A DNA stretch of 64,000 nt, from positions 38,786-102,785 of the forward strand of contig CAWHHI010000018.1 in assembly GCA_963829055.1 (NCBI GenBank), read 5' to 3'. Origin of the DNA: an uncultured Gemmatimonadaceae bacterium. GTDB taxonomy: Bacteria; Gemmatimonadota; Gemmatimonadetes; Gemmatimonadales; Gemmatimonadaceae. Below the pieces are notes generated by a model that was not told the origin of the DNA, searched no databases, and worked only from the letters and a program-made list of their open reading frames with translations. The translations under genes were made by a program, and so were the position numbers. Position 1 is the stretch's first letter; each line of letters begins with the position of its first letter. This document shows, in pieces, positions 1 through 62,934 of this stretch.

Positions 1-2954
1 CAGATCGGCGGGACGCCTAACGAAAAAGGATGGGCCGTCGAGTGGACCGAACCTCCTGAAACGCCGTTCGAGTACGCGCCGTCGTATCAGTTCGGCATTC
101 GGTCCGGCCGTCCCGGCGGCGGTTCCGGGTCGGGTGAGGGCGGTCTTGGTGATGCGGCGTCCTCGGGACGCGGGGCAGGCGCGGGCGGCGGACAGGCGAA
201 GGACGGTGACAAGGAAGGCGGCGCGGGAGAGAAGGAAGGAGCCGGGACCGGCGCGTCCGAAGGCATTGAAGGGAGCGCTGGTGCCGGCACGCAGGGCGGC
301 GTGGGCAAGGCGGCGGGCACAGGGGCGGGCGACAAGGACGGGCTCAAGGGCGGCAACGCAGGCGCTGGCGGAGCGGGCGGGCAGGCCGACCCCAACGCGC
401 ACCGCCTAACGGCACGCGAGGAGGCGCTGTGGCGCGACCTGTACGAGAAGATGACGGGGGCGCCGCCGGAAACATCAACGATCCGCTCGAACTGATCCGG
501 CTCTACGAGATTCTGCGTGAGCGGGTGCAAGACCCGAAGTTCTCTACCAAGGGTGAGCCGTGGACCGAGTTCGCGAAGTTCCTCGACAAGAACCGCGACA
601 AAATCGAGGGCATCATCCAGAGCGGCCCCGGCGGGCTGACCGCGCCGAAGATGGAGGAGATCATCAAGGAGTACGGAAAGTTCATCGCCGGTGAGCCCGA
701 CCAGGACAACAGAGAGGCGCTCAAGAGCGTCGAAGACTTCGACAAGGAGTTTCAGTACGATCCCGGATGGGCACAGCTCTCTCGCGCTGACCGGAAGCTG
801 CTCCTCGAATACGCGAAGCTGACGCCCGACCAGGTGGGTCACAGGAAGGTCGAGTTCCCGCGCATCACGACGAGCATGAAGATCGTGATGGCGCTGAAGG
901 CATCGGTGAAGAGCTGGCCGGGGGAAATCGCTGACGCGGCGTTCCACGCGTTCACGGACCCGGGATTCATCATCACGCTCATCGTGATGATGGCGATCTA
1001 CGTCGGGCTGTGGCTCACCCCCGACCCGAGCTTCGTGACGAAGATCGCCGCGGGCACACTGACCGTCACGCTGCTCCTCCAGTTCGCGTGGGAGGACATC
1101 TACGGGCTCGCCGTGGCGTGGAGCAATCTGTCCGACGCGTGCGCGGCGGCCACGCAGATGTCCGAGCTCCAGGCCGCGGGAGACCGCTTCGCGAAGAAGG
1201 TCGGGCAGGTCGGCTTCGACATCATCTGCTTCATCGTGATGGGTCGCCTCGCGAAGCGCGTCGGTCCGAAAGTGCAGAAGATCGCCGGCGAGCGGCTGGT
1301 CGCGAACGCCAAGGCACAGGTGACGGCCGCGGAAGCGAAGCCGGGGTCCGGCGTCAAACCCGCGGAAACGGCCGCATCGCGCACGGCGCTGAGTGACGCG
1401 AAAGCGAAAGCCGCATCCGACACGCCGACGGCGACGCTCGATGCGTTAGGCGATTCGCTACCCAAGTCGGCGAAGGATGGACTCGCCTCGCTTCGCAAAG
1501 CACAAGGCGACGCGAAGGCGTTGGCCGAGGTGGAAGCCGACGTGGCGGCGGGACGCGATCTCTCGCATGCGCTCGCCGAGCGTGGCATGTCGGCCGAGGC
1601 AAGGGCGGCGGCACGAGCGGACGTGTCAGCCGCGAACGAAGCCGTGGGGCGGGCGGACGCGAAGCTCGCGATGGCGAAAGCTAAGGCCGACATCGCCACC
1701 GCCGAACGCGCCGCCGCCGCGCAGGCGGAAGTGCTGGCGGCGGCCGGTGAGCTGGCGAAAGCACGCGGAGCGCTCACCGCTGCCGAAGCGAAACCGGGGA
1801 GCGGCGTGGCCAAGGCCGCACCGGCCGGAGCCGGCACCACGCTTCTCGACACCGCGAAGGCGACCGCGAAGTCCAAGACACCATCCGCGGTGCTCGACGA
1901 GCTCGCGGCGAAACTTCCCAAGGATGCGCGCCAGGGGCTCGCCGCGTCCCGCAAGTCCGGGAACGACGCGAACGTGCTTCGTACGCTCGAGGCGGAGGCC
2001 GCGAAGGGTCTCGACATCACGCGGTTGCTCGTCGAGAAGGGGACGACACCGGCGCAGCAAACCGCGGCGAAGGCCGACCTGCTGGCGGCAGAAGCGAAGC
2101 TCGCGCGCGCGGAGATGATCAAGGCGGAGACGTTCAAGGATCCGGCCGTTCGCGCAGAGGCGCGCACGAACGCGATGCGGCGTCTGAAAGCACGGCTCCA
2201 CGAAGCCGGGATCCTCGACAATCCGAAGGTCGCGAAGGCAATGAAGGGCGGCGACGTCACCGAGCTCCGCGGCGCGATCGGCGAAGCGCTCGGCCGCGCG
2301 CAACTCGCGGCCGAGTACCCGGCGAGCAAGGGTTACCGCATCCTCGCGAACATCGGCGTCGCGCGCGAGATCCCCGGGTACAAGACCATCGCCGAATGGC
2401 AGGCCGCCGACATCAAGGCGGGAGGCAAAGGCAACACCGCGAAGCTCGTGCAGCACAAGGGCAAGGTGTACGAGATGATCGGTGAGGTGGATTCCCTCGT
2501 GGTGAAGGGGGGCGGCAAAGGGAAGAAGTCGACCATCGTCGCGGCGGAGGAAGTGAAGAGCGGCGGGGAGACCGCCGGCAGCGCGACGAAACAGGTCAAG
2601 CAGGTCATCAAGGGGCTCGCCGACATTCAGGCTGGAGCGACGGACGTGAAGGTGTTCGAGCGTCCAGGGAAACATAAATTCGGCAAGGAGCTGACCGATA
2701 CGCTCGACCTGTCATCGTTAGGCACGGTGGACAAATTCGCGCGCGGGCCAAGAGGGAGAGAAGGCTACGGCACCAGGCAGCTCGGCTACACCACGGATGT
2801 CCTCGAAGCGGTTGCCAGGAACATCGTGAAGGAAGGCCTGCCTCCCAAGGGTCCGCAGAAGGTCGTTCCGCAGGCCTTCCCGAAAGGCGAGGAAGAGGAA
2901 GGCGAGAACGCCGTGGAGGAAGAAGCGAAGGAACCGGCCGGCGCGTCGCGCTGA
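1..2954 (+). CDS. Large polymorphic-toxin-like eCIS effector, 5'-truncated by the window, frameshift near 465; TM/pre-toxin region, internal repeat, C-terminal PD-(D/E)xK nuclease-like domain
   Basis: Frame 1 is open from base 1 (Gly-rich linker) to 495 and continues in ORF 429..2954. Hydrophobic segment FIITLIVMMAIYVGLWL. C-terminal motifs GAIGE...IGEVDSLVV...EEVKSG. Confidence 0.7.
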
Positions 2955-2996
2955 GGTGTAGTCCACGCGCTGAATCCTTTTGGGTTCTCTCGATTC

Positions 2997-3428
2997 ATGT
3001 CGCGCGCGTGGCGCGGCGGGCACCTTGGGCGCGCACTGCTCTCGGAGTCCACTCTGTCGCCGATCAGGATTCTGCTCGCTGCCATGCCAGGCATGATGCG
3101 CGACATCGTCGAGATGGCCATCCGCTCACAGCCCGACATGGTCATCGTCGGCCTGCTGAGCGTAGTCGCCGCGCGCGACGCGTTGACCGATGCCGTGCGC
3201 CGGGGACGACCCGACGTGGTCATCGTGGGCCTGGAGGCGGACACGGAGCCGCACGCGTGTGAGGCCCTGCTCTACGACCACCCGCGCGTTCGCCTCCTCG
3301 AGGTCATCGACGGCGGCCGGGCCGCAACGCTCTGCGAGCTGCGGCCGCATCGCGTGCCGATCGACAACGTGTCACCGGAAGGTCTCGTTGGCGCGATCCG
3401 CGCCGCGACCAGGGTCGGGATGTCCTGA
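2997..3428 (+). CDS. Degenerate response-regulator receiver-like protein (start uncertain)
   Basis: IRILLAAMPGMMRDIVEMAIRSQPDMVIVG...PDVVIVG resembles a NarL-type REC domain but lacks the acidic residues. TGATG overlap with the next gene. Confidence 0.55.
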   Translation: MSRAWRGGHLGRALLSESTLSPIRILLAAMPGMMRDIVEMAIRSQPDMVIVGLLSVVAARDALTDAVRRGRPDVVIVGLEADTEPHACEALLYDHPRVRLLEVIDGGRAATLCELRPHRVPIDNVSPEGLVGAIRAATRVGMS

Positions 3429-40923: not shown

Positions 40924-41035
40924 GGTAGTCCTGTCGGAAATTCGGGTCTGGTGTTGCCGAGCCGGCTGTACACGGCTCGGGACGTCCTGTATATGACGTC
41001 GATCGACGCGACTCGAATTCGACATGCTGCTTCCT

Positions 41036-42570: not shown

Positions 42571-42577
42571 GACATCG

Positions 42578-43144: not shown

Positions 43145-43200
43145 TCATAGTTATCGCTCCCGCGCGTCTCGTGCACCAGCGGGGAGATGCCGGATCTCCA

Positions 43201-44617
43201 TCAGGCTTCTACGCGCTCGACTTCTCGGCCTCCGGGAGGCCACCGCCCCGGCCATCCGGGGAGCAGGAGTCCCAGCGCGAGCCCGCCGATCGCCAGGGCG
43301 AAAGTGAGTAAGTAGGCGCGACGGAGCCCGGCCAGCGGCGTTGCTGCCGCGAGAAGCGTTGCCAGAACGGCAATGCCGTAGGCTTGCACGAGGTACCGCG
43401 ACGACGAGACGAGTGAAGTCGCCCGCGGAAGCGCCGCGTGAGTGACATCGGCCAGTGCAGCGGTGAACGGCGTCTGTCACCGTGAGGCCTAACGCGATTC
43501 CGCGGATCGCGGTCAGCATGACGATGAAGGCGAGCGAAGTCGTTTCGCTCAGGTTCGCCAGCTGCCACGTATTGTAGATCAGCAGCGCAAACCCGCCGAC
43601 TACGAGCGTGCGCGGCCCGATGCGATCGTAAACCGCTCCCGCGATCGGCAGAAGCAGCCCGGCACCGAGGGCCAGCGGGAGCATCACCAGGCCGACGCGT
43701 CGCGCCGGCTCGTGTCGCACGACCTGGAGATACACGGGCAGCAGAAATTCGGCGCCGAAGAACGCGATCACGGTCACGTAGCCGACGAGCGTCGCGATGC
43801 GAAAGACAGGACGGCGGAAGAGCCGCAGATCGAGCAGCGGGTCGCGCGCAAGGCGAAGCTCGACGACCGCGAACGAGCCGAGGCCGACAGCACCGATCGC
43901 GAGCCACGCGAGCGTCCACGGAGCCGTCCATCCCAGCGTAGCAACGAGCGACGTCGCGTACAGCGACGCGCCGAAACCGCTGATCGCGGTGACGAGGCCC
44001 CAGGCATCCCAGCGTGCCGTCGATGAACCCGGCTGCACGACGAGAAAGCGGCGCGCAACGAGCACGCCGAGCACGCCGATCGGGACGTTGACGAAGAAGA
44101 TCATCCGCCACATGCCATGGTCGACGAACCAGCCCCCGAGCACGGGACCTAACGCGGGAGCAAACAGCAGCGCAAGTCCGAACACGCCGAGGGCAAGCCC
44201 GAGCTCCGACTTGCTGAAGCCGCGGAACGAGGATGGCTGTGCCCGTCGGAACCGCGAGCCCGCCGCCGATGCCCTTGATCGCGCGTGCGAACACCAGCGC
44301 CGGCAACGTCGGCGCTAGACCGGCGAGCAGCGACCCGGCGGCGAAGATGATGAGGCCGGCGATGTAGATTCGCGTGAGCCCGAAACGGTCGCCGAGAAAG
44401 CCAGCGACCGGCGTGGTAATCCCGAGCGCGAGCACGTAGATCGACACGATCCATTGGGCGCTGTGCAGCGACGCGCCGAATTCCGCGCGGAGTGTCGGGA
44501 ACGCGACGTTCACCGCGGTGGTGTCGAGCGTGACCAGAAGATGCCGAAGACCACCGCTGCGACCACCCGCCATTTCGACATTCGCGACGCTGGCGGTGAC
44601 GTGGTCGACGCTGTCAT
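43201..44617 (-). CDS. DHA2/EmrB-like MFS exporter (frameshifted)
   Basis: LDTTAVNVAFP, QWIVSIYVLA, GDRFG, PALGPVLGGW, WRMIFFVNVPIG, PLLDLRLF. Confidence 0.9.
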
Positions 44618-45011
44618 GCGAGGCTGGCGGCGAGGACGGCGACTTCCGCCAGGAGCACCGCGATCATGATCGCGTTCTGCCGCGGCGGGACGCCGAGGCG
44701 TCACGGAGAGTCCTCGTGCGGGCAACGCGCGTTGCGGCGCGAAGGAACTGGAGCAACGCCAGGCCACCTACGATGGCGCGGTTCCGTACCGGGTCGACGG
44801 CCGCAACGGCAGCCAGTACGCCGATCGCCACCGCCTGCGCTCCGATCATCGCTACCACATAGTCCATCTGCCCGTTCTCGCGAAGGTCAGCCGAATAGAG
44901 CGCGCGTGCGAATCGCCGAGCGCCCGCCGGAGCGATCAGCGCGAGCAGCCCGGTGCCAAGGTGATACGCCGCGAGCAGTGCCAGCACGGCCTGCGCCGCC
45001 AGCATGATCAT
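44614..45011 (-). CDS. Small membrane protein (about 4 TM), frameshift near the 3' end
   Basis: Hydrophobic helices. ATGA coupling at both ends. Confidence 0.6.
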
Positions 45012-47815
45012 CGTGTCAGCTGGTGCGTACGGTTCGGCGGTAGCGAGTAGTCACGCCACTCTGCGCCGCACCACCGGACGCGTACGGGGACCGGGCCTGT
45101 CCACGCGCCGAGCCCAACGTGAACGGTGCCGCTGTTCTGGGCCGCGAAGCCGTTGGCATGCTGCGTCTCCTGAACGATCGGCGGTTGCCCGGGCAGCTGC
45201 ACCACCACGGTGGAACCAGTGGCGTCCCGCGAGCACTGAGGCCCACCGCCGACGAGACGAAGCTCGATCCACGCCGTGCGCGCCGCGGCAGTCGCCTCGT
45301 TATGCAGGAGCACCGGTGTCGCGTGCTGGTTCGCGATGAGAACGTCGAGCCGTCCATCGCCGTCGAAATCGGCGAGCGCGGCACCCCGAGAATTGTCTGA
45401 CGCCGTGAAGCCCGCCGCTTCCGCAACGTCGACGAATTCCGGACGCGCCTTGGCGCCTCGATTGAGGTAGACGCGTCGCCGCTCGTTAGGGTAGATGCAG
45501 CGCCCACGTAGATCGCCCCACATGTCGGCGTAGACGTGAATGGCGCGCGGCGACTGCATCAGCTTGTGGTTCACGTACCAGTAGTCGGGGCAGCCCTCGT
45601 AGCGGCGGTCGAGCCGGTCGTCGACCATGCCGTTCGTCTGCACGATATCGAGCCAGCCGTCGCCGTCGAGATCTCCAACAGCCGCTCCCCAGCCGAAGCG
45701 GTCCTCGTTGAGCGCGCCGCGCCGGCTCGCTTCGTCCGTGAACTGTGGACGACTCTTCGCGTCTGTACCGCGATTCATCCACAGCAGCGAGCCCTCGGCC
45801 TGCAGCGCGTGATGGACGTTCGACACGTAGATGTCCAGGCGCCCGTCGCGATCGAAGTCCGAGATCGAGCTGTTCATGCCCTTGTACGTGTCCATGCCGA
45901 TGTCGCCGAACATGGTACCGGCAATGCGCTCGAAGCGTCCGTGCCGATTCATGTAGAGGTCATCGCGGCCGAAGTCGCTCGCGATGTACAGGTCGGTCCA
46001 GCCATCGCGATCGAGGTCGCCCGTGCCGACCGAGATCGACCAGTGCGTCTCCGGCATTCCTAACGCGGCCGCGTCGAGCGGCTCGAACGTCCCGTCGCCG
46101 CGGTTTTCGAGCACGAGGTTGCGACCACCATTGGCGGCGTCGTGCCAGCCGTCGTGCATGAAGGCGAACATGCGGCGGTCGCCCGGGTACGCCGGTGCCG
46201 GGAGGCGGAAGATCGAGAGACGCGTCGAGTCCTGATACTGCCTGAGGTGTGAGTCGAGGACGTTGCCGACGATGATGTCGAGATCTCCGTCGCGATCGAA
46301 GTCGATCGCGTTCGCGCTGACACTGATCGCGTAACGGCCGACGCCGGAGTGCTCGGTGACGTCCTCGAACGCCAGCGTCCCGGACTCGGTCAGCATGTTC
46401 CTGAGGAGTCGGATCGAGCCGAAGCTCACGACAACCATGATGTCCTGGTCGCCGTCATTATCGTAGTCGAGCAGCAGCGAGCCTGACGCGAGACCGACTT
46501 GCGCTGGGTCGCCACCGAAGCGTGACAACGCCGGGACGTCGACGCGCTCGAATCGCATGTCGCCGCGGTTGAGCCAGACTCCCACGCGATCCGTCGGTAT
46601 CGCGAGTGGTGCCGTGAGCACGACGTCGGGCCGGCCGTCACCGTTCAAATCGGCGACCGACGCACTCGCGCCAACCGAAAGCAGCCACTTGGCGATGTGG
46701 CGGAGTCGCGCATCGACGAGATCGTATGCGCTCGGGTCCATCGTGACCCGGAGTCCGCTGCGCGACGCCGGCACCTCGGCGAGGCGAAACCCAGGATCAT
46801 CGATCGCCACGTGAGGGCGAATCACGCCGGCGTACGCGACGGACCCGAGTACGCCGATGAGCCCCACGATACCGACGCGCCGAGCCAACGCCGGGTCGAG
46901 AAGCGTTAGGCGCGCGTACCGTCCCGGTCCTGCAGCCCGGGCCCGCTTGAAGTGCAGCCAGAAGAAGCGCACGGTCGCGACGATGAACGCGGCGTAGAAG
47001 AACGTGAACACCGATTGGAAGCGGTGCAGCACGAGGTCCACGAGCGCGATCGAGATTCCGACTGCGATCTGGTTCCCGCGCGTGTCCGGAGACGTGCGCG
47101 GGTCGGTGAGCATGAAGAAGGTGAAGAGGAAGAACGGCGGCGCGGTCATCGTTCCGAGAAAGAGCATCTCGGGCGGAAGGTGCGCTCGCATGAGGTAGGC
47201 GCGCAGCGCGGTCTGCAGCGCGTAGGTCACGAGGAAGGACGCGATGAGCCAGCCTCTCCCGATCCGGAATACGAAGCCTGCCAGCGCCAGCGTGATGATG
47301 AACGCCGACATCGCCAGTGTCCCGCCCCACTGGTACGCTGGAGCCGCGGTGATGAGGTGTCCGGCAAAGAGCAGTGTCGTCGCGACGCCGAAGAGCGACG
47401 GGTTGTAGTGGTGCTTCCCGTCCACGGTGAACACGTACTTCGATGCGATCGACAGGAAGACCGGCACCGCCAGCAGGAAGTAGTCGTGAGCGTAGTTGAG
47501 TAGAATGGCCAGCGAGAGCCCAGTGATGAGCGCGCTGAGCGGAACGAGCAGCTCGCGTTTGCGGAGCAACGCATGAAGCCCGACCTCGAGCACGCACGCC
47601 GTCCCGACCGTGAGCAGGATCTGGGACGGTGAGCGATTGAAGCCAAGAACCGTGCAGCCGAGGATGAGGTAGATCGCCAGGATGGCGGCGAACGCGAGCC
47701 GCGGATCGCGCCACGTCGGAAGTCCTACGATCGGAGCTCGCCGGCGCCCGACCGGCGCGGTAGAAGGCGTTAGGCCGCCTTCGTACGCGCGCGCGACGCG
47801 CGGCGGAGCCGTCAT
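45008..47815 (-). CDS. Fusion of RnfD/NqrB-like (UnbU-type) membrane domain and FG-GAP/ASPIC-UnbV (CRTAC1-like) domain
   Basis: N-terminal DPRL, SALITGLSL, SKYVF..GKHHYNPS.FG, FFMLTDPRTSP. C-terminal repeats ADLNGDGRPD, DYDNDGDQD, DFDRDGDLD, DLDGDGWLD and an ASPIC/UnbV tail GFAAQN..VHVGLG. Confidence 0.85.
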   Translation of the reverse strand: MTAPPRVARAYEGGLTPSTAPVGRRRAPIVGLPTWRDPRLAFAAILAIYLILGCTVLGFNRSPSQILLTVGTACVLEVGLHALLRKRELLVPLSALITGLSLAILLNYAHDYFLLAVPVFLSIASKYVFTVDGKHHYNPSLFGVATTLLFAGHLITAAPAYQWGGTLAMSAFIITLALAGFVFRIGRGWLIASFLVTYALQTALRAYLMRAHLPPEMLFLGTMTAPPFFLFTFFMLTDPRTSPDTRGNQIAVGISIALVDLVLHRFQSVFTFFYAAFIVATVRFFWLHFKRARAAGPGRYARLTLLDPALARRVGIVGLIGVLGSVAYAGVIRPHVAIDDPGFRLAEVPASRSGLRVTMDPSAYDLVDARLRHIAKWLLSVGASASVADLNGDGRPDVVLTAPLAIPTDRVGVWLNRGDMRFERVDVPALSRFGGDPAQVGLASGSLLLDYDNDGDQDIMVVVSFGSIRLLRNMLTESGTLAFEDVTEHSGVGRYAISVSANAIDFDRDGDLDIIVGNVLDSHLRQYQDSTRLSIFRLPAPAYPGDRRMFAFMHDGWHDAANGGRNLVLENRGDGTFEPLDAAALGMPETHWSISVGTGDLDRDGWTDLYIASDFGRDDLYMNRHGRFERIAGTMFGDIGMDTYKGMNSSISDFDRDGRLDIYVSNVHHALQAEGSLLWMNRGTDAKSRPQFTDEASRRGALNEDRFGWGAAVGDLDGDGWLDIVQTNGMVDDRLDRRYEGCPDYWYVNHKLMQSPRAIHVYADMWGDLRGRCIYPNERRRVYLNRGAKARPEFVDVAEAAGFTASDNSRGAALADFDGDGRLDVLIANQHATPVLLHNEATAAARTAWIELRLVGGGPQCSRDATGSTVVVQLPGQPPIVQETQHANGFAAQNSGTVHVGLGAWTGPVPVRVRWCGAEWRDYSLPPNRTHQLTR

Positions 47816-48971
47816 ACGAGCGCCATCTCGAGCCCCGGCATCGGCGAAGTCGGGGGGATCAACGGGAGCGCGACGCCAGGTAGCGTCACGAGATGCAGCT
47901 CGGCGCGAAGGTTGGTGACGACCATTCCGCGATACGCCGTGTCGTTTGCGTCGCCGACCGGCGCGCAGGCGCTGATGAAATGAAATCCGGCAGCGCGTGC
48001 CCGCCGGTATGCCGCGCGAAGGAGCGCCCGCAGCAGCGACGGTTCTGCAGGCGGAACAGCGACGTGCGTTGCGTAGACGTAGCGCAGCGGCGCTCCGGGT
48101 TCCGGTAGATGCGGACGTCTGAGCACGGTCGCCATGATGTCGTGGATCATGCGCACCCGGCGCATCGATCCCGAGTACGACGCGACGACGGTCTCCTTCA
48201 CCGGGGCCGCGTCCCAGAGCGCGAGCGTGCCTACCGGTGTGCCATCGGCGCCAGTCGCGACGAGGAAAGAGTCGATCGTTAGGCCCGGCCAGGTCGCCAG
48301 CCGCCGTCGCAATTCCGCCTCGTCCACGACGTAGCCGAACGGACGGGAGCGGCCATCGGCGTCGAGCAGCCGCGCGATCGCGGGGATGTCGGCCTCGGTC
48401 GCACGCCGCACGTGCCACTCACTCCGCTCCGGCACGAGCGGCAGAACGAGCTGAATCGCGCGGATGTCGAACTCACGAAGCACGGTGTAGCGCGGTCGGC
48501 CAGCGCGCTCCGCACGCGCGGGTCGCGCAACGAGCGCGCGCCTGGCGCGGAGGTTGGACCCGATGATGGCCGTCACGAAGTACTCGCAGGTCCATTCGTC
48601 AGCAGCGTCACGCAGAATGGGCCCGTAGAACCGATCCAGTAGTAGCCGGCCTTGAACTACAGGCGCGAGGCGGAGGTCGCCGAGGTATCCGACCGGCACC
48701 CGGCGCCCGTCGAGCCAGCCGTCTCGCACCAGCACCGAGCCCGTTCCTACCACCGCGGCGTCACGCTCCACGACCCACTCACGCCAGTCGCGCGCGTGGA
48801 GTGCATACAACGCCGACATCGTCGGCGAGCGTCGCACGGAAAGCGCGAGCTCGGCGTCCATCGGCACCGCGGACATCAACGCGCGGCGTGCCGCGTCATC
48901 GCTCGCAGTCGCGAGGCGAACGACCGTCGACGTCGTCGCGCGCAGGGAATCCGTGGCGGTGGCGGTCATCA

Positions 48972-48975
<4 letters not shown>
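47812..48975 (-). CDS. Tandem GNAT-fold acyltransferase-like protein
   Basis: VRLATASDD, VGYLGDLRLAPVVQG. A second module begins VRRATEADIPAI. Confidence 0.65.
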
Positions 48976-50006
<1,031 letters not shown>

Positions 50007-50129
50007 CGTTCCAGCGCATGACGTCCCGGCGCTCGACCGCGTGCTGCCGCTCGGTGCGGCTCGCGTGCGATAGCGCGGCCTGCGTGTCGGTGATTGTCAT
50101 TCCGAGGAGCCGCGAGCGCTCGGGTAGAC

Positions 50130-51812
50130 TCAGCGAGTCGAGAACGGTTTGTCATTCCGAGCGGCGGCGCGAGAGGAATCGATCGTTCGGCATTCGAAAT
50201 ACCGTTCCCAACCTAACGCCGGATCGAGCGCGGGCGGCTTGATCGTGCCGGCACGTTGGCCACGCTCAGCGCACGCGAGCTCGTACGAGCGCTCGCCATC
50301 GCGGACGGCGACACCGCACACCGGCTCGAGCTGGCCGAGCCCGCGGCAGAGCGCGTAGTGATGGGCGGCCAGCAACTCACGCTCGACCGCGGCCGCGAGC
50401 CGCTCGGCCTGCTCACGAGACGTATCGACGTAGAGCATGTACCGATGCTGCGGTTCCACACTCGGCACGAGCATCGCGAAGGTGGAGCGCATTCCTGTCG
50501 CGCCTAACGCCGTCGAGAGGACCTGCTCGACGAAGGCGGGTGTCAACTTCTCGCCCGCGAGGTCGCTCGCCCGATCGGCTCGTCCGCGAAACGAAAGCAT
50601 CGGCGTGCGTCGCACGAAGCCTTCGACGCGCACCAGATCGCGGAGCCTGTAGCGATACAGTCCGCCGCTGGTGGTCAGCACGACTTCGTAGGTCGCACCG
50701 TATTCGAGGCGATCGACGCCTGTCGCGCGCGTAGTCTCGCCCTCGGGCAGGAACTCGAGATAGTGAGATGTGACCGCGGCGACGGGATGCGCGCATCCGA
50801 GGAACGGAATGGACACGACGCCTTCAGTGGCGAGCAGTCCCTTCGGTTGGATCTCCACGTGCGGGAAGCGGCGTCGCACTCCGTCCAGCGCGCGCGCGGC
50901 GTGCCCGTCAGCCCAGCACGAGATGAGCGCGAGGCGTTCCCATATCTCACCGAGGTCCTCAGGCGGCCGACTTCCAAAGCGGCGACGAAGCGCGCGGGCA
51001 CGGGCAGGACGCGCCGGCATTTCACGCTTCACATGAGCCGAGAGATCCGGCGCGAGCGGCGTGCGAACTTCACCATCCTCCAGATCGCGCAGCAAATCGC
51101 CGAACGTCATATCGAGATCGCTGGCGAGCAGCGCGAGAAAGCTCGGGCTCCAGACGGGAGATGAGCCGCAGGTCGGGGGCCGCGAGCAGCGCGCGCAACG
51201 TCAGGTACCGACATGTCGCGATGTCCGGGGCGCGCGCTACGATTCCTGGTACGGCGAGCGACCGCTCGAGGAGCGCGCGCAGGGGGGCGGGGAAGTAGTC
51301 GCTGTCGTGCTCCATGCCGATCGCGATGCCTCCCGCTGTACGCGTCGGGCGCCTGCCGGGCGGTGAGACGGCCCAGTAGGCTCGCCCGCCACGAAGCGCG
51401 CCACGCGACGCAAGCAGATCGTACACCCACGCCATCGTCGCTCGCGAGAACTCGGCGAGCAGCGCATCGGTATAGGGAACGAGCTTGAGCGCACCTGACG
51501 AGCCACCGGTCGGCTCCATGAACTTCACCGGCGCGGTTGTGAGAACGCCGGCCTCGCCGTCGCCGACGCGACGGACCCAGGCGCGAGCTCGCCGGAGTCG
51601 AGGAATCGCACACTCTCGTTGTAGTACGAGGCGATTGGATGCTCGCGAACCCGTGCGCGCGGCCATAGGCCGTCCCGGCATTCTCGCGGACGATGCGGCC
51701 AGGATGCTCGCCTCCGCGGCATGCGGCGCTCTAACGCTTTCCGGAATCGAAGACGCGCTGGAACGGCCCCGGCGCGGGTGGCGCTATTCGCGAGTCGCGC
51801 GACGACGGTCAT
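50130..51812 (-). CDS. GH3-family acyl-acid amido synthetase (frameshifted)
   Basis: EPTGGSSGALKLVPYT, GLLATEG, HYLEFLP, YEVVLTTSGGLYRYRLRDLV, DLAGEKL. Confidence 0.88.
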
Positions 51813-52618
51813 CCGACGAAGCGCCCCGCGCCAAGGCCGACCGTGCGCAATGCGCGACGGACGAGGAAGCGGGCCATCACGCGCACGAGGTCGCGGATAC
51901 GGACGACGGCCAGGCACGCGAGCTCGTCGCCGGCGCTATGACCCGGATTCCGCTCTACGAAGTATCGAACGTGGCGGTTGCGCAGCGCCGCGGGCGTGAG
52001 CGGCGCGATGCCATCGCGGACGTACTCGTGTGGCGTGGCGTAGCGGATGATCCCGGTGTCCGAGTCGTACTCATCCCCGAATCGCTCACCTGCGACCGTG
52101 TCCAACATGTCGCGCAACTCGCGGTCGTCGAGCTCTCCCTCGCGCGGGATCGATCGCGGGAAGGCGTTGGCAAGAATCAGGTAGGTTCGATACCCCTTCG
52201 AGATCAGGAACCAGTAGAGCGGCCGCCTCGGCTGCCGGAGCTTGAGCGAGAGGAGAAGCCGCGCAACGGCGATCTGGAGCTCCTTCTGCCCCCAGTATGC
52301 TCGATCGACGACGGTATCGCCGGAAAAGAAAAGCGTCGCCGGCCCACTCGAAGTCGCGATGTCCGTGAGAAGCACCGTTGAAAAACCCTTCAACGCCCCA
52401 GTCTCGCGATCGTGAAGCAGGATCACCCGCTGCTTCTCCGCGAGATCGGTCGCGAATCGAGCACGATTGGTTCCCGCGTAGGTCGCAGCAAACAGCGCGT
52501 ACGCGTCGTCCACCGTAGCGGTAGAAAGCGTGCACGGCGTGACCACGCTCGCGACGAGTCTGCCCGTGACACGCCGGCCCTTGCTTACCTCGTCGAGTGA
52601 GATCGCGGCCCCGGTCAT
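51809..52618 (-). CDS. Conserved hypothetical protein, probable GNAT fold
   Basis: FATDLAEKQRVIL..LKGFST, FSGDTVVDRAYWGQ, YWFLISKGYRTY. ATGA-coupled to the GH3 gene. Confidence 0.6.
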   Translation of the reverse strand: MTGAAISLDEVSKGRRVTGRLVASVVTPCTLSTATVDDAYALFAATYAGTNRARFATDLAEKQRVILLHDRETGALKGFSTVLLTDIATSSGPATLFFSGDTVVDRAYWGQKELQIAVARLLLSLKLRQPRRPLYWFLISKGYRTYLILANAFPRSIPREGELDDRELRDMLDTVAGERFGDEYDSDTGIIRYATPHEYVRDGIAPLTPAALRNRHVRYFVERNPGHSAGDELACLAVVRIRDLVRVMARFLVRRALRTVGLGAGRFVG

Positions 52619-52700
52619 GGAACTCCGTGTGGATTCGAGGTGCAGAGTAGCGCCCGGTGCGGCAAGTCGGAGATACGTCGTGTGACGTAGCCGTCGGCCG

Positions 52701-53321
52701 TCAGCGATCGAGATTGGTGTAGCGGCCGAGCTGAAACCGCTCGCGCCAGGCGCGTGGGATGCTGCGCGCGTCCGACGGTGATGGTCCCGAGAAAGTCCTG
52801 ATCGTAGGCAACGTCCGTAGCGACGACCCTGATGCGCGGAAAGGCACGGGTCGAGATACGTACCGAACAGGCGGTCCCAGAGCGTGGTGAAATTGCCGTA
52901 GTTCCCCCGCAGATCCACGGAGTGGTGGAGCACGTGCTCGTGCGGGGTCGTCAAGGCGAACACACGCAGCACGCGGTGTGCGAGCCAGCCGCGGCGGAGA
53001 AACGAGGAGTGGCTCGTCACGAGCAAAGTGCTCGACGCCAGCAGCGGGATCTGAAACACGAGTCCAGCGCCACATGGGACGCCCGCCAATGCGCAGCGCG
53101 AGGTACGTCAGGATCGCCGTGAACGCGATTGTCGGCACGACGGTGAAAACCGCGAACGGCCGCACGCCGAACCCGGGCATCCCGACGAACACCTGACTTG
53201 GGAGGTGGTGACTCTCGTGGGTGAACCAGAACCACCGATGATGACTGAAGCAGCGGTGCCACGCGTAATCCACGAGGCCTGCGAGGTGGAACAGCGCGAC
53301 CGCGACGACCGCCAGCCGCAC
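52701..53321 (-). CDS. Sterol desaturase / fatty acid hydroxylase family (frameshifted, N-terminus apparently missing)
   Basis: His boxes YAWHRCFSH, THESHH, HEHVLHH. NYGNFTTLWDRLFGTY. Confidence 0.85.
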   Translation of the reverse strand: MRLAVVAVALFHLAGLVDYAWHRCFSHHRWFWFTHESHHLPSQVFVGMPGFGVRPFAVFTVVPTIAFTAILTYLALRIGGRPMWRWTRVSDPAAGVEHFARDEPLLVSPPRLARTPRAACVRLDDPARARAPPLRGSAGELRQFHHALGPPVRYVSRPVPFRASGSSLRTLPTIRTFSGPSPSDARSIPRAWRERFQLGRYTNLDR

Positions 53322-53466
53322 CCAACTGCGGCGTCCAGTCCACCGTCGCTCCGTAGCCTCGGGCGATAGCCTGCGTCAGCGATGCCGAGACGTTGACCGC
53401 GATGCCGACGACGAGGTGGAACGCGGCGATGAACCAGAGGTAGGCCTTGAGGATCTGGTAGGACAT
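53322..53466 (-). pseudogene. 5' fragment of a small membrane protein paralogous to 44614-45011
   Basis: LKAYLWFIAAFHLVVGIAVNVS...YGATVDWTPQ resembles AQAVLALLAAYHLGTGLLALIA...YSADLRENGQ. Similarity ends abruptly. Confidence 0.45.
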
Positions 53467-53610
53467 GGCGGGGATGGAGGCGGGATCTGCCGCGGCGGTC
53501 GCGCAGGATTATACCGCACGCTGCCGAGTGCGCCACACGTGCATGACACCCGGGGGGCCCGCTCGGGCGGTCCACCGACTAGATTTGGGCATCACCCTCG
53601 AGGTCAACGC

Positions 53611-53904
53611 ATGAAAGCGATGCAATTCGAAGACGTTGGGCGCACCTTCACGTGTGAGCCCGGCTCATCACCCGCTACCCCAGGAACACTCTGGTGGTGG
53701 GTCAGTGTGTCTGGCGAAACCCAGCGATACGCGGCATTCCGCGTTGAGCCCACCGATACTCCGGCGTCACTCAGACCTCGGGTGCTCGCCTATTACGCCC
53801 AGATCCTCGTCGATCGTGAGCGGCCGCGCATCACCCGGCCGACCTGGGCGCAGCGTAAACCGGCTCCCGCACCGGAAACGAGCGGGACCCCGACGACGAC
53901 CTGA
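53611..53904 (+). CDS. Small hypothetical protein
   Basis: GAGG RBS upstream. Coding-like sequence FEDVGRTFTCE...WWWVSV...YAAFR. Confidence 0.65.
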   Translation: MKAMQFEDVGRTFTCEPGSSPATPGTLWWWVSVSGETQRYAAFRVEPTDTPASLRPRVLAYYAQILVDRERPRITRPTWAQRKPAPAPETSGTPTTT

Positions 53905-54103
53905 TCGCGGCGGTATCGCGCAACCCGGCGGCTCATCTGCGAGCCCAGGGTTGCGCGAGCGCCCCGCGCGGGGCGCACAAGACCACAAAAAGCACCTGTC
54001 TATGTTGGGTCGCGTTTGGGTAGCTTGCGCTCGCCCACGAGGTGCGGTTGTATGACGCGCCAGGGTGTCGGTAACGCGTAGCCAGCCCACGAGAAACGGC
54101 GCC

Positions 54104-55072
54104 ATGACCCTGCCGCCCGCAGATACGCTCGCGAAAGTCGAAGTGCTCGCCGACCTGGAGCCGGTCGTGCACGAGCTGATGGAAGCCCACGAGGCCAAGC
54201 GCCTGCTCTGGTTTCCGAGCGAGCTGCTCGCCGCCCCGCCCGAGACGGACCCCGACCATCACCTGCAGGAGCTGCGCAAGCGAGCCGAGGGGATCAGTCT
54301 CCCCGCACGGGTCGCCGTCGCGCTCAATCTCCTCACGGAGGAAGGGCTCCCGCACTTCCACCGACTGCTCGCCGCATACCTCGGCGGCGATACGTTCTGG
54401 TCGAAGTGGACCAACCTCTGGACGGCCGAGGAGGATCGGCACGGCGCCATCCTGCACGACTACACGCGCGACAGCCGCATTCTCGATAATCCCGTACTCG
54501 AGCGTATGCAGTTCGAGTATCTGAAGGCGGGCTTCGAACCAGCCTGGGACAAGGATCCGTACCGCGTCTTCGTCTACACGACGCTCCAGGAGCGCGCGAC
54601 TCAGGTCAGCCACGCGAATACGGGGAAGCTCGCCAGCGAGTACGAGCCGACGATTGGCATGGTGCTCTCGAACGTGGCCAAGGAAGAGGCTCGGCACTAC
54701 ACGTTCTATCGCACCATCTTCAAGGAAGTGCTCGAGCGCGATCCCAATCGGGCACTCGCGTCTGCCGCCGAGGTCATGCCGTCCATCGACATGCCGGGCG
54801 TCAACATGCCGCACTTCCGCGAGTTGGCCGATGTGATCCGGAGGGCGGGCATCTACGGGCCTCGAGAGTACCTCAAGATCGTCGAGGAACAGATTCGCTT
54901 CTGGGCGATCGAGGACATTACCGGTCTCGACGAGGTGGGCGCCCGATCTCAGGAGTCGATCCTCGGCATTCCGAAACGGATCGAGCGGTTCGCCAACGCC
55001 CTCGAGGTTCGCAACCGCCCCAAGAGCTTCTCGTTCGCCGTCGCGTTCAGCCGCGAGTTCCAGATGGACTGA
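54104..55072 (+). CDS. Acyl-ACP desaturase (ferritin-like di-iron)
   Basis: NLLTEEGLPHF, WTAEEDRHG, YTTLQERAT, EEARHY. Confidence 0.93.
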   Translation: MTLPPADTLAKVEVLADLEPVVHELMEAHEAKRLLWFPSELLAAPPETDPDHHLQELRKRAEGISLPARVAVALNLLTEEGLPHFHRLLAAYLGGDTFWSKWTNLWTAEEDRHGAILHDYTRDSRILDNPVLERMQFEYLKAGFEPAWDKDPYRVFVYTTLQERATQVSHANTGKLASEYEPTIGMVLSNVAKEEARHYTFYRTIFKEVLERDPNRALASAAEVMPSIDMPGVNMPHFRELADVIRRAGIYGPREYLKIVEEQIRFWAIEDITGLDEVGARSQESILGIPKRIERFANALEVRNRPKSFSFAVAFSREFQMD

Positions 55073-55350
55073 CGTTGTCGCCGCGCGCGTTCCGGCGGCG
55101 CGATGTCCTTCATCGGTGCTGCGAGTACGTGTAGTAGACGTAACTGAAAGAACGGCAATCGCGTGGGCGTTCCCGCGCGCGACGACGCTGGCCAGTTGGG
55201 CCTGTTCAGGCGCGGCTCACCCTGCGGGCGCATCGGTTCGTCCCATGCGCCTTGGCGCTGCTCACAGCACCGCCTTTGATTGAGCGAGCGCGGTTTCTGG
55301 GACGAGCCGAATAACGTGCGTCCCGCGTTCGAGCACACCCACGGCCATCG

Positions 55351-57855
55351 ATGACGAGTAGCGCCGCCGCTCCATTCCTGCCTCATTTTCCGGAATCGGT
55401 TCCCGTCGGGGAGCCGGCGCGCAGGCGCTGGGTTCGATGGACCCTGATCTTCAGCGCCTGGACAGTCTACGGGTTGTCGCAAGGCCTTCTAATGAAGGTC
55501 ACCGACCCCAGCATGACCTGGCTGTGGGCACTGGAGATCTGCACCGGCGTCGCGTGGTTCTGGGCGCTCCTCACGCCGGGAATCGTCTGGATCCAGCGCC
55601 GCATCGAGGAAGCACACTTCGGCAAGCCGGGCTCGCTGCTGGCGCATGCGATCATCGCCCCGGCGGTCGCGTTGCTCGTCACGATGGTTCGGCAGCGGCT
55701 CACGGCGGCGATGTCGCCACTCGACATCGGCCCGCTGATCCCGAGCTACGTCTACTGGCTGGACGTGCATATCCTCACGTACGCGATGGTGGTCGCGGCG
55801 GCGTGGGCGTTAGGCCTGCATCGGCAGTACCGTGACCGAACGGTTCGCACGCACATGCTCGAGGTGCAGCTCGCGCGCGCGCAGCTCCAGTTTCTTGGGC
55901 TTCAGCTTCAGCCGCACTTCCTGTTCAACTGTCTGAACGCGATCTCGGAGCTCGCGCACGAGGCGCCAGTCGCCGCCGAGCGAATGCTGCGGCAGCTCCA
56001 TACGTTGCTTCGTCTGTCGCTGGAGCGCGCCGGGCAGGACGAGGTGACGCTCGACGAGGAGCTCGCGAGCCTCGACCCGTACTTCGACATCCAACGCGCG
56101 CGCTTCAGCGAGTGGCTCACGGTGCACCTCGAGGTCGAGCCTGGAGCTCGGCTGGCGCTCGTCCCGCACCTGATCCTGCAGCCGCTGGTGGAGAACGCCA
56201 TCCGACACGGACTCGCGGTCCGGTCCGCGCCAGGCAGCGTCGGCGTCCGCGCGTGGGTGACGGATTCGCGACTGCATCTCGAGGTGCTCGACAACGGCGT
56301 CGGTCTCTCGCCGACACGAACGTCATTCCGCCCGGGCATCGGGCTCAAGAACGCGAAGAATCGGCTGACGCAATTGTACGGCGACGACCACCGCTTCGAG
56401 CTGCGGTCGGCTGAGGATGGTGGCACCGTCGTGGCGTTCGAGATTCCGTATCGATCGCGCGCGCTGCTCGCGGACCAGCCGCCGCCGGACTGGAGCGCCA
56501 CCGGCGAGTGGTCGATGATGCCGCCGCAGCGCTTGTGGTCCACGCCTGCGGCCGGAACGCCCGCCGCCGGACAGTCGACGGCGGCGGCCGTCGCGCAATC
56601 ACGCTGGAACGGTCTCGAGGCCAACGAGGTCCTCGGCAACGATCCGCCATCGCTCGCGCGCACGGCGTCGGTGACGGAGCGCGCGAACGGCGCGACCGAG
56701 ACGTCGATGGGCGCCACGTTAGGCGACCCGCACGCCGTGAAGCCGGGACGCGAGTCGCCGCGAATCTCGGCCCGTGGCTGGCTCGCCGATCGCCGGCGTC
56801 TGGGCCGGCAGCGCGGTGTTGTGGTCGCTCCAGGTGTATTACTTCTCCGTCACGCGGGGCACGCCCGAGGCGGGGGAACAGATTCAGTACTTCCTCACGC
56901 ATCTCGTGTCGGCGGCGGCGTGGGCGCTGTTCACACCGCTGGTGCTCTTCCTCGCGCGTCGCCTGCGCATCGGCCGGCGTAATTGGCCGAGCCGTATCGC
57001 GGTGCACGCTGTGCTTGCTGTCGTCGTGGCGACTGCGCATGTCGCGATCGTGCGGGCGACGGGTCTCATGGGCGATTTCGGTCTCTTCTCGTCGCTCAGC
57101 TTCAATCAGATCTCGGGCAACGTCTTCATCTACTTCGGCGTTGCTGGCCTGGTCGCACGGGCGCGACTTCTACGCCTGGTATCGCGAGCGCGACGTCGCG
57201 GCGGTGCGACTCGAGGCCGCGATCGCGCGGTCGCGCTACCAGACGCTCTGCGTGCAGCTGCGGCCGCAGTTCCTGCTCGGTACCATCGAGCTGCTCGCGC
57301 GGCTCGTGCACGAGGACGTGAATCGTACGGAGCGGCTCATCGCCCGCTGGCGGACGTGCTTCGCCTCACGCTCGACGCGGCGAGTGAGCGCGAGACGTCG
57401 CTCCGCCGCGAGCTGGAGCTCGTGCGCGCCTACGTCGACGTGCACGACCTCGGCGTTCGGCCGGGGACGGCGCTCACGCTTCACGTCGCGCCGGAAACGT
57501 TGTCGGTGCGCTTGCCGAACCGGCTCCTCCGCACGTTGATCGACGACCTGCTCATGGGCAGCGGTGTGGCCTCGTTCCACCCGAGTCGATGTCGGTGACG
57601 GTGGAATCGGAGCGGCTGGTCGGTGGGACCACGCGGGTCCGCGTACATGCAGCAACCCCCGAGGGCGAGGCCGCGGAGACGGGCCGTCCGGGCGGTTGGG
57701 TGGAAGCGGTCGAGAAGGCGACGCTCGCCGAGCGCGACCGGAAGGTGTCGTTGTACTTCCCTGATTCGATGACCGCGATCGTCCTGCTGGCCGATCGTGA
57801 CGCGGAAGCATCCCGGGACTCGGCGCCCGCGCTGCTCTCCGCTCAACCTGCGTAG
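55351..57855 (+). CDS. LytS-type sensor histidine kinase with a tandem second TM plus degenerate kinase module (frameshifted)
   Basis: QLQPHFLFNCLNAI, LQPLVENAIRHG, DNGVG, GIGLKN. Second module QLRPQFLLGTIELL, SLRRELELVRAY. Confidence 0.8.
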
Positions 57856-57869
57856 CCCGAGGTACCGAC

Positions 57870-58706
57870 ATGTCGATTCGTGTGTTAGTGACGGACGACG
57901 AACCCATCGCACGACGACGCATCCGTCGTTTCCTGCGTGCGGAGAGCAACGTCGACGTCATCGGCGAAGCGTCGAACGGGCGCGAGGCCATCGAGGCGAT
58001 CCGCCAGCACAACCCCGACCTCGTCTTCCTCGACGTGCAGATGCCGGACGTCGATGGGTTCGGCGTCGTCCAGGCGTTAGGCCCCGACCAGATGCCAGCC
58101 GTGATCTTCGTGACGGCCTACGACGAGTACGCGCTCAAGGCGTTCGAGGTCAACGCGCTCGACTACCTGCTCAAGCCGTTCGACGCCGAGCGTTTCAAGA
58201 GCGCGTTCCAGCGCGCGCGCGAGCACATCGATCGCGTGACGACCGCGCAAGCCGGTCGCCGGCTCAAGACGTTGCTCGAGCAGGTTCTGCAGGACGACAA
58301 GGTCGATGTCAATACGGCCGCACAGGCGTTGTTAGGCGCCTCGGGCACGCACGCCGCTCCGAAGAACGGCTACCTCGATCGCCTGATGGTGAAGAGCGAC
58401 GGCCGCGTGTTTTTCGTGAAGGTCGCCGACGTCGATTGGTTCGAGGCGTCGGGGAACTATGTTCGCGTGCACGTCGGGAAGACGTCGCATCTGATTCGCG
58501 AGACGATGAACGGGATCGAGTCGTCGCTCAACCCGCAGATGTTCGCCCGCATCCATCGCGCTGTGACGGTGAACCTGGATCGGATCAAGGAACTGCAGCC
58601 GTGGTTCGCCGGCGACTACGTCGTCATCCTTCGCGACGGCCGACAGCTGAAGCTCAGTCGCACGTATCGCGAGCAGTTGCAGGCGCGCATGCACCGCATT
58701 CCCTGA
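57870..58706 (+). CDS. LytTR-family response regulator
   Basis: DDEPIAR, FLDVQMP, FVTAYDEYA, DYLLKP. LytTR FARIHR..VNLDRI, LSRTY. Confidence 0.95.
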   Translation: MSIRVLVTDDEPIARRRIRRFLRAESNVDVIGEASNGREAIEAIRQHNPDLVFLDVQMPDVDGFGVVQALGPDQMPAVIFVTAYDEYALKAFEVNALDYLLKPFDAERFKSAFQRAREHIDRVTTAQAGRRLKTLLEQVLQDDKVDVNTAAQALLGASGTHAAPKNGYLDRLMVKSDGRVFFVKVADVDWFEASGNYVRVHVGKTSHLIRETMNGIESSLNPQMFARIHRAVTVNLDRIKELQPWFAGDYVVILRDGRQLKLSRTYREQLQARMHRIP

Positions 58707-58708
58707 GC

Positions 58709-58763
58709 GCCTAACGAAACAGCCCCGCCGTCGACGTCGACGGCGGGGGCTGTTTCGTTAGGC
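58709..58763. terminator. Near-perfect 55-bp palindrome between convergent genes (bidirectional terminator candidate)
   Basis: GCCTAACGAAACAGCCCCGCCGTCGAC / GTCGACGGCGGGGGCTGTTTCGTTAGGC, differing by one extra G. Confidence 0.8.
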
Positions 58764-61638: not shown

Positions 61639-61877
61639 GCGGGGAACGTGGCGGGCCTCGCGGCAGGTATCGACCGGTCGGTGCTCGGCTCGAACCCAAG
61701 CACGTGACCGCAGGGCGAATCCGGCTCTCGGCGCTCACACGCGGCTCGCATAAGCGAGCGCGCGCTTCGTCACACGAAACGGGCGACGCCGCGTCGCGGC
61801 CTCCTACGTTGCCAACCACGGCACTAGCTAGGGCTCTCTTCGGCGAGGACCGTCCGTGATTCAGGTGGCCTCAAACC

Positions 61878-62792
61878 ATGAGCGCGACGATCGATTGTCG
61901 CCAGCTCACCAGCACGACGACCTGCGAGGGGTCGCCGCGGCATTCGAAACCGCGCAGGCCCAGCGGCTTCGCACCGGCGAACAGATCCGCGCGCTCGTTC
62001 AGACGCGCGGTGATACACGACCGCCGCATGCGCGCGGGACGGGCGACATCGAGGCGCTGCTCGCCCGCATTCGCGCCGGGGCGGCACCGGCGCCGCTCGC
62101 GTCGGTCGGTGACGTCTATCGCCGACAGTGGAACGAGGAACGTGAGCTCCTGCGCGAGCTCTCGGAGCGCATCGCTCGACACCCGGCGTGGCACTGGCTG
62201 GAACGGGTGCGCGGCATCGGCCCGTCGCTCGCGGCTCGTCTCCTCGCGCGTCTCGAGATCGATCGCGCGCCGACGCCGTCGTCGTTCTGGTCCTACTGCG
62301 GACTCGCGACCGTCGTGGCGCGAGGTGTACCGGTGTAGCGAGTGCGGCTACGAGTTGTCGTTGGCCGCGGGGCGCAGCGTTAGGTCCGCGCATCGCGTGC
62401 CGCGTTCGGGACAATCGTGCGCGGGCGCGCTGGCGCCGATCGGCGAGGGACCGCGTCGTGTGGCGCAACCGCGTCCGACGCGTGGCGAGAGCGCCCCGTA
62501 CGACCGTGAGGCGAAGAAGCTCTGCTACCTCATCGGCATCTCGTTCGTGCGGCAGGGCGACACGTACAAGCGCTACTATCAGGATCAGCGCGACCGACTG
62601 GATGCGGCGAAGCCCGACTGGATTCCGAGACGCCGGCACCTGACGGCGCTGCGGATGACGGAGAAGCTGTTCCTCGCGCATCTCTGGCTCGTGTGGCGCG
62701 AGCGGCTCGGGCTCCCGATCACGGCGCCGTACGCGGACGTTCGTGATGACGGTTCGGCGTCGCCGAGGCCGTGGGCTATGGTGGAAGCCTAA
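61878..62792 (+). CDS. IS110/Nop-domain protein lacking RuvC (TasA-like) with CCHC Zn-ribbon insert; frameshifts near 61895 and 62320
   Basis: Coiled-coil, then HPAWHWLERVRGIGPSLAARLLARLEIDRAPTPSSFWSYCGL, then CSEC..H..C, YDREAKK, HLTALRMTEKLFLAHLWLVWRERLGLPITAPY. Confidence 0.7.
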   Translation: MSATIDCRQLTSTTTCEGSPRHSKPRRPSGFAPANRSARSFRRAVIHDRRMRAGRATSRRCSPAFAPGRHRRRSRRSVTSIADSGTRNVSSCASSRSASLDTRRGTGWNGCAASARRSRLVSSRVSRSIARRRRRRSGPTADSRPSWREVYRCSECGYELSLAAGRSVRSAHRVPRSGQSCAGALAPIGEGPRRVAQPRPTRGESAPYDREAKKLCYLIGISFVRQGDTYKRYYQDQRDRLDAAKPDWIPRRRHLTALRMTEKLFLAHLWLVWRERLGLPITAPYADVRDDGSASPRPWAMVEA

Positions 62793-62934
62793 CGGTCAGC
62801 CGTTCGCACACGGCCGCGTGATCGGCGGCACAACGTGCCACTGCAGTTTCTGGTATGGTGTGCCGAGCCTAGAGGATGAATGCACGCCCGCCCCGGGCCG
62901 TCTCCTTGCTCGTCCGCTTTCGCCGCACTTGCCG

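Follow-up and report, generated by a model that had tools for sequence, protein, structure and literature searches.

A highly iterated, non-palindromic octamer in Gemmatimonadaceae: strong upkeep, mutual spacing, recurrence in a second phylum, and a tentative case for an uptake or recombination tag

The window analyzed here comprises 64,000 nucleotides of contig CAWHHI010000018.1 (assembly GCA_963829055.1, positions 38,786 to 102,785 of the forward strand) from an uncultured bacterium that is assigned to the Gemmatimonadaceae by the names of its close homologues. It contains an extracellular contractile injection system (eCIS) gene cluster and, dispersed among its genes in both orientations, a non-palindromic octamer, GCCTAACG (read as CGTTAGGC on the other strand), which we call the word and whose hexameric core is CCTAAC/GTTAGG. 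Its occurrences and the features around them, in window coordinates, are as follows.

15 to 62794, both orientations: dispersed word GCCTAACG/CGTTAGGC, 46 octamers inside 70 CCTAAC cores, about 1.1 cores/kb
15 to 30562, plus strand: octamers of the first half, at 15, 404, 9417, 9726, 10671, 12042, 19411, 23061, 29999 and 30555
35772 to 62794, plus strand: octamers of the second half, at 35772, 36370, 41741, 42075, 43487, 50502, 58709, 60421 and 62787
1444 to 29584, minus strand: octamers of the first half, at 1444, 2716, 5344, 12303, 14219, 15482, 16063, 17095, 17587, 18585, 19261, 21244, 22600, 24351, 24793, 25295 and 29577
39280 to 58763, minus strand: octamers of the second half, at 39280, 39702, 46904, 47768, 48277, 49328, 55808, 56717, 58075 and 58756
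62787 to 62794, plus strand: copy of the word that provides a TAA stop, ending the open reading frame (ORF) at 62460-62792
3428 to 24730, plus strand: eCIS gene cluster (Pfam: Pvc16_N, CIS tube, baseplate V, gp25, baseplate J, Tail_P2_I)
50509 to 55808, both strands: longest core-free stretch of the window, 5.3 kb

The 70 cores (31 on the plus strand and 39 on the minus strand) compare with a mean of 5.59 and a maximum of 13 in 100 shuffles of the window, and the 46 octamers with a mean of 1.05 and a maximum of 4, representing 12.5-fold and 44-fold enrichments. A sequence-only reading of the window had put the hexamers at about 70, many of them full octamers, and all 14 of its example positions lie within one base of a site. 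It set the chance expectation too high, at about 20 hexamers and 2 to 3 octamers, such that the enrichment is stronger than it claimed, and the G+C content of the contig is 67.1% rather than about 69%. By reading frame, 20 of the cores take the form G TTA GG, 10 are CCT AAC, 9 are C CTA AC, 8 are GTT AGG and 1 is a TAA stop; 22 of the 70 fall outside called genes, with a gene caller that covers 77% of the genome.

The claim that every gene block carries the word holds broadly, apart from core-free gaps at 32062-35772 and 50509-55808. The eCIS cluster has 1.13 cores/kb, at or above the genome average, and the word fills 16 of its free sites (positions where it fits without altering the protein) against 11.3 expected; the long residence of the cluster that had been suggested is unproven, and phage contigs carry the word too. 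Several ORFs in the eCIS tail region, and an 841-aa ORF at 429-2954, have no Pfam match. Between 32700 and 37000, several single-base insertions relative to short-read contigs split efflux genes, and these broken-looking genes are likely to be assembly errors.

Single-base insertion errors relative to short-read contigs occur in the source assembly at large, and they are what speaks for the word being a basecalling or assembly artifact, or else a product of neutral mutational bias, an explanation that is almost certainly wrong. Contrary to the absence from short reads that had been named as the mark of an artifact, short-read assemblies of other genomes contain the word; so does the finished plasmid 2 of the cultured Gemmatirosa kalamazoonensis (32 octamers in 50 kb versus 0.7 expected), and different genera have it at orthologous codons. 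It is missing (0 copies in 96 kb) from three foreign-looking contig ends of the source genome, and the mutual repulsion of sites is not something that neutral mutational bias would produce. Word-free contig ends (C6:1-55000, C11:1-44000, C6:592000-623330 and C4:1-3000) encode housekeeping genes that look foreign when their translations are read and are probably chimeric joins; the word serves in this way as a contamination marker, and the ends, if foreign, as an internal control.

The source genome (G000; 7.78 Mb, 86% complete) contains 7,103 hexamers and 5,004 octamers, or 0.91 cores/kb, and the octamer is its top 8-mer under both order-2 and order-3 Markov models (observed/expected ratios of 49 and 19). 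Within 5,404 confident genes, called with a purpose-made gene caller, it exceeds synonymous-codon shuffles 16.6-fold and 39.7-fold in its two orientations; the octamer stays far above both the Markov and the codon-preserving nulls that had been proposed as a check on its enrichment. In these genes, 71% of TTA codons (1,796 of 2,520) lie inside the word, as do 261 of the 695 TAA and 185 of the 1,387 TAG stops. At silent positions, a strong force maintains the word.

The consensus is graded. The core is preceded by G in 79% and followed by G in 90% of cases, and no longer flanking consensus was found in the 1,588 sites outside called genes. Against the codon-shuffle null, the one-mismatch variants descend from ACCTAACG (10- to 23-fold) through GCCTAACA (6- to 14-fold) and GCATAACG (4- to 5-fold) to GCCGAACG (about 1-fold), and GTTAGAC, with 24 genome copies versus 5,002, is not enriched. 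Two tripeptides that the word can encode are also more frequent than their reversed controls (ALG 2,606 versus GLA 1,680; PNA 596 versus 355). Density is lowest between divergent genes (0.56/kb, as opposed to 1.88/kb between convergent genes), and the rRNA repeats have none. Genes with low G+C at third codon positions (GC3) have lower filling of free sites (0.67 to 0.83 versus 1.19); the word is scarcer in these genes and in cassette ORFs, yet dense in phage contigs.

Orientation is nearly neutral. With the terminus placed by the dif site and GC skew, the two replichore orientations number 3,230 and 3,374 (Spearman skew correlation of -0.20, weak), and the two coding-strand orientations 1,987 and 2,308. 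The dif site itself lies at C16:560810 on the minus strand, at the GC-skew maximum and 20 kb from a Xer recombinase gene. An apparent strand polarity in genus g53 was a listing artifact, as sequence stretches show mixed orientation. The word is read as double-stranded DNA, in either orientation and with little tie to the direction of replication or transcription.

The copies avoid one another. The density of pairs less than 100 bp apart is 0.03 to 0.7 of baseline (mostly 0.2 to 0.4) in all three relative orientations, recovering by 300 to 800 bp, whereas four control words cluster. Free sites of the form xPN[ADEGV] are filled in 1,112 of 1,790 cases (62%) and those of the form [APST]LG in 1,505 of 5,281 (28.5%), and occupancy of the latter climbs from 3% at less than 50 bp from another site to 38 to 41% at 400 to 1,200 bp. 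The closest-distance class appears to stay above the codon-use prediction, and the spacing therefore reads as a diminishing return rather than as harm from close pairs, with one site serving about 300 to 500 bp on each side. Helical phasing was not detected in the source genome, nor was a clear long-range oscillation in four contigs at 5-kb bins, an analysis of low power.

The word is patchily distributed among relatives. Of 160 Gemmatimonadaceae genomes, 48 have at least 100 octamers/Mb (rich), 104 have fewer than 25 (poor) and 8 lie between; all six congeners of the source genome are rich, and the unpublished genome G013 contributes one poor row and supports no other result. None of 92 genomes from the phylum outside the family has more than 100 copies, although 3 of 8 genomes in a sister family have 177 to 561. 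On an RpoB tree (FastTree, 27 rows; 4 of 30 genomes unmatched, the source genome added, two rows partial), the rich/poor label changes five times, with four changes forced by strong branches (at least 4 to 5 switches), and the poor genome G050 is nested in a clade with the rich G056 and G086. RpoB has four invariant (A/P)-L-G positions, which are spelled GCG/CCG TTA GGY in 42 of the 57 rich cases and in none of the 45 poor ones, a sharing that can be inheritance or convergence at few free sites. At 25 of 36 aligned sites, the word is common to the source genome and congeners with saturated fourfold sites, the same sites being counted up to five times. A reduced mutation rate close to sites was set aside as an explanation, this saturation leaving no power to see one. 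Poor genomes have no significant decay traces (TTG/CTA) in eight sets, and none of the 40 within-species differences listed, out of about 1,070, falls inside a site. The word switches rapidly between lineages. The Markov, codon-shuffle, RpoB-site and occupancy results support the earlier proposal of a genome-wide, actively kept signal analogous to DNA uptake sequences or to cyanobacterial HIP1; the nucleoid-protein binding suggested with it is a possible reading.

The word is also established in a second phylum. A three-site scan of 185,579 species genomes returned 39 matches: 10 from Gemmatimonadota, 28 from Verrucomicrobiota (Chthoniobacterales where named) and a single Tepidisphaeraceae contig. 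The form in Chthoniobacterales is GCCTAACGA (619 of 679 octamers in 0.79 Mb), and the short-range repulsion of sites recurs in the same 0.79 Mb. Five of five Chthoniobacterales genomes chosen for the word have 2,766 to 4,562 copies, and 7 of 81 genomes in the order are rich. The Tepidisphaeraceae contig (L365, 3.4 kb) has 8 octamers and represents a third phylum or a misbinned contig.

Phages carry the word as well. Four tailed-phage contigs contain 31, 22, 16 and 11 octamers where about 0.3 would be expected. The copies lie within genes for terminase, portal and tail proteins, and head or tail genes were confirmed in three of the four; a fifth, small contig has 5 octamers in 4.3 kb. No close relatives of one phage, L115, were found. 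Most of the 122, 17 and 44 matches in viral scans were chance occurrences, integron arrays or repeats, and the 14 and 9 octamers of viral contigs L050 and L096 sit in co-oriented longer repeats that are phage specific rather than a dispersed signal.

The dense phages recall the over-representation of Chi in RecBCD-using phages (PMC3784561) and argue for an intracellular self-mark. A patchy, probably mobile protein would bind the word on any double-stranded DNA replicon and protect or license the surrounding 300 to 500 bp, for instance by stopping a nuclease or translocase or by setting the limits of a silencing nucleoid filament; hosts would be selected site by site, and phages would copy the word to replicate. 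The patchiness of one word in two phyla (48/160 and 7/81 genomes, with at least 4 to 5 changes on the tree) suggests a single transferable determinant, and the spacing rule common to both phyla and the low density between divergent genes are in keeping with it. Such a mark, the main rival to the uptake or recombination tag discussed below, is possible but less likely than not. The phage contigs are partial, were found by a density-selecting search and could represent prophages of long residence; the word has neither helical phasing nor a clear long-range period; and no gene tracked the trait among eight candidates or in a cross-phylum comparison of about 1.2 Mb.

Since the word is evenly spaced, runs against codon habits, and recurs in relatives, a second phylum and phages, a protein system must read it. 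The cross-phylum comparison set the source proteins against about 1.2 Mb of Chthoniobacterales DNA (0.79 Mb of one 3.8-Mb genome and about 0.4 Mb of other loci); 296 proteins matched, with no obvious shared DNA-reading gene among them. Two genes lean toward rich genomes, probably via habitat, and were set aside. Ku occurs in 36 of 41 rich and 24 of 39 poor genomes (P = 0.009, kin not independent) and is absent from all three genomes of one rich genus, and a cross-phylum hypothetical protein occurs in 20 of 39 rich and 6 of 37 poor genomes (P = 0.002, kin not independent) and is absent from a complete rich genome. The latter protein (C5:243031-243783, 200 aa) is about 60% identical across the two phyla and has no family in the Atlas. 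The comEC neighborhood was likewise rejected, as it does not track the trait.

One candidate is a Type IIG-like N6-adenine methyltransferase (1,066 aa), followed by an SNF2 helicase (C8:73494-78400), which is single copy in 70 of 71 family genomes and is also found in sister families. Targets of MmeI and of bacteriophage exclusion (BREX)-type enzymes have a penultimate adenine, as the word does invariantly, and the methyltransferase model resembles CamA, PglX and MmeI. The word could then be the target of a non-palindromic N6-adenine methyltransferase whose mark maintains it through repair or recombination, in the manner of HIP1 (highly iterated palindrome 1), which is partly methylation dependent according to 10.1101/2024.09.10.611283. 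Methylation-directed upkeep, also raised from the sequence alone, is nonetheless quite unlikely. This sole candidate is common to rich and poor genomes alike, was not found in five of five rich Chthoniobacterales with the query used, and has no residue in its C-terminal recognition region that separates 9 rich loci (about three lineages) from 13 poor ones, drawn from records other than the rich and poor sister pairs; a crude motif screen gave no other clear DNA methyltransferase in the source genome, itself 86% complete. The methyltransferase/SNF2 pair resembles DrmMI/DrmD of the defense island system associated with restriction-modification (DISARM) and, although restriction-like, is kept in the manner of a core gene.

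The non-palindromic form, the over-representation in phages and the presence of an AddAB-like pair in the source genome would suit a Chi-type hotspot read by AddAB/RecBCD, a reading that is largely refuted and highly improbable. Chi is strand biased (PMC5861425), whereas the word has almost no replichore skew. AddA of the source type occurs in 1 of 42 rich and 3 of 38 poor genomes (one query, one family; divergent enzymes could escape), the complete rich genome G056 offers only a weak PD-(D/E)XK match in a 430-aa frame, and NurA was found in 0 of 5 genomes. A canonical helicase-nuclease for end resection may be absent from a large part of the family. The AddAB-like pair (C15:9162-16049) lies in an accessory region, its AddA type occurring in only 4 of 80 genomes.

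A further likeness is to the attC sites of integrons, whose consensus is GTTRRRY for the R' box and RYYYAAC for the R'' box. In motif-poor relatives, the copies that do occur in clusters are the ends of repeats of about 550 bp with R''...R' anatomy. Of 54 array sites in these relatives, at loci chosen for the octamer and therefore biased, and defined with no covariance model, 47 end in GTTAGGC and 7 in GTTAGAC, and 42 begin with GCCTAACA. In the cassette arrays of the order, the word is the modal attC R' box letter for letter and differs by one base from the modal R'' box. The array adjoining intI in the source genome uses the word and is the sole place there with paired boxes in a hairpin arrangement; a crude genome scan of the dispersed copies yielded lone half-sites and about three distinct hairpin-like pairs. 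This integron (C20:199800-209000) has about ten cassette ends, and its integrase has the catalytic lysine and the first histidine replaced, unlike 30 other integrases of the family.

The integrase might itself read the word, with exchanges at core-like sites favoring alleles that have the optimal core. Beyond the identity of the boxes, the strictest positions of the word are the GT of the crossover triplet, and head-to-head pairs at recombination-site distance are the rarest (1 versus 9, P = 0.02). An integrase reader is very unlikely: intI is about as frequent in poor genomes (30 of 40) as in rich ones (32 of 40), the source genome shows no enrichment of the attC variant GTTAGAC, and IntI1 genomic insertion sites share only a GWT consensus (10.1101/2022.09.11.507474). 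IntI is catalytically normal in both rich and poor genomes, and the copy in the source genome is degenerate at two catalytic positions. A reader derived from IntI was dismissed, the source genome having nothing of the kind beyond XerC/XerD-like genes, a single degenerate intI and a single N-terminal fragment, as was a XerC half-site, the dif site having a different XerC arm.

By analogy with the DNA uptake sequences (DUS) of Neisseriaceae and the uptake signal sequences (USS) of Pasteurellaceae, we tentatively prefer to regard GCCTAACG as an uptake or recombination tag spread by molecular drive, while judging that this account has somewhat less than an even prospect of being correct. The tag would make the uptake of a word-bearing fragment, its recombination into the chromosome, or both, more likely. 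Sequence-specific binding during uptake or early recombination would give word-bearing alleles a transmission advantage, a second site on the same short fragment would add little, giving rise to the spacing rule, and lineages that lose or lack the specificity would keep background counts only. More speculatively, the specificity may have been tuned to the word because no other conserved end is as common among integron cassettes; its presence in two phyla could then be accounted for with no reader gene in common. The source genome encodes ComEC, DprA, ComM and a full type IV pilus cluster, and poor genomes have such machinery too.

Several observations weigh against a tag of this kind. ComEC is as common in rich as in poor genomes (38 of 40 in each), DprA is present in 70 of 70, the pilus cluster is syntenic in three rich and two poor genomes, and minor pilins are no more alike among rich genomes, with no rich-specific pilin among five genomes and no receptor found. 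No replacement dialect was found in poor sisters (five genomes, 67 to 122 kb each), and eight of nine letters are common to two phyla rather than lineage specific. Inverted pairs within 20 bp number 1 and 9 versus about 33 expected, PLG is not above GLP (689 versus 812), and the densest phage contig, at 1.83 octamers/kb, exceeds every host counted (1.34/kb and 1.43/kb). Compared with an uptake tag, the self-mark better accounts for how dense the word is in phages and for its identity across phyla. The word is not filed as a DUS because it fails two DUS features, terminator pairs and lineage-specific dialects.

An unlikely but broader conjecture is that one sequence-reading system, shared or convergent in Gemmatimonadaceae and Chthoniobacterales, recognizes the cassette core, either in fishing cassettes from soil DNA, with the word as a by-product, or as a mobile self-mark with a reach of 300 to 500 bp. 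If true, a cassette-core reader would for the first time connect integron sites with a genome-wide code. The identity with the attC box, the mutual spacing and the second phylum go beyond what was first noted in the window. Rich and poor sister genomes in two phyla provide natural knockouts for the reader, and the sharp spacing law, the word-bearing phages and a cultured plasmid bearer make uptake versus self-mark directly testable. In these abundant soil bacteria, the word rewrites codon use and some tripeptides; it is a marker for binning and for phage-host assignment and may help make the lineages transformable.

To our knowledge, recognition words that saturate a genome have been described in only a few groups (DUS, USS and HIP1), and it has long been asked why such words build up. 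The literature searched for the word and these lineages contained no description of it among the top-ranked matches, most subscription journals lying outside the scope of the search. Like DUS and USS, the word is non-palindromic, occurs about once per kilobase on both strands and occupies permissive coding positions. Further likenesses are the enrichment of encodable tripeptides (PLG being the exception) and conservation beyond neutral sites, as reported for DUS/USS (PMC2817400 and PMC2397512); the lower filling of low-GC3 genes may also parallel the scarcity of DUS in acquired genes, which PMC2397512 reports together with a spacing like conversion tracts of 0.6 to 1.5 kb. Unlike DUS and USS, for which close inverted pairs in terminators are typical (10.1101/2025.10.24.684340), the word has 8 to 9 bases and no flanking consensus, avoids close inverted pairs and is not used in terminators; it is also the same in two phyla, on or off between sister genera with no replacement dialect, and dense in phage contigs.

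With HIP1 (GCGATCGC, cyanobacteria), the word shares hyper-abundance as an octamer in coding and non-coding DNA, conservation against codon preference and favored one-mismatch variants, features given for HIP1 in PMC5861425. HIP1 sites raise transformation (10.1101/2024.09.10.611283), and their abundance correlates with uptake-system genes (10.64898/2026.06.24.733823). The word differs in that it is no palindrome and is patchy in two phyla; no cognate methyltransferase was found for it, nor a clear long-range period in the low-power analysis of 5-kb bins. In relation to Chi, likewise a non-palindromic octamer over-represented in some phages, it is about 3 to 5 times denser, enriched 20- to 50-fold rather than 2- to 3-fold, almost free of strand skew, and accompanied by no AddAB/RecBCD common to rich genomes. 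As opposed to attC/attG sites, whose R' box it matches and whose R'' box it misses by one base, it forms lone half-sites without a hairpin, is narrower than the tolerance of the integrase and is unrelated to the presence of intI. Set beside these systems, the word is a real and strong member of the highly iterated genome words.

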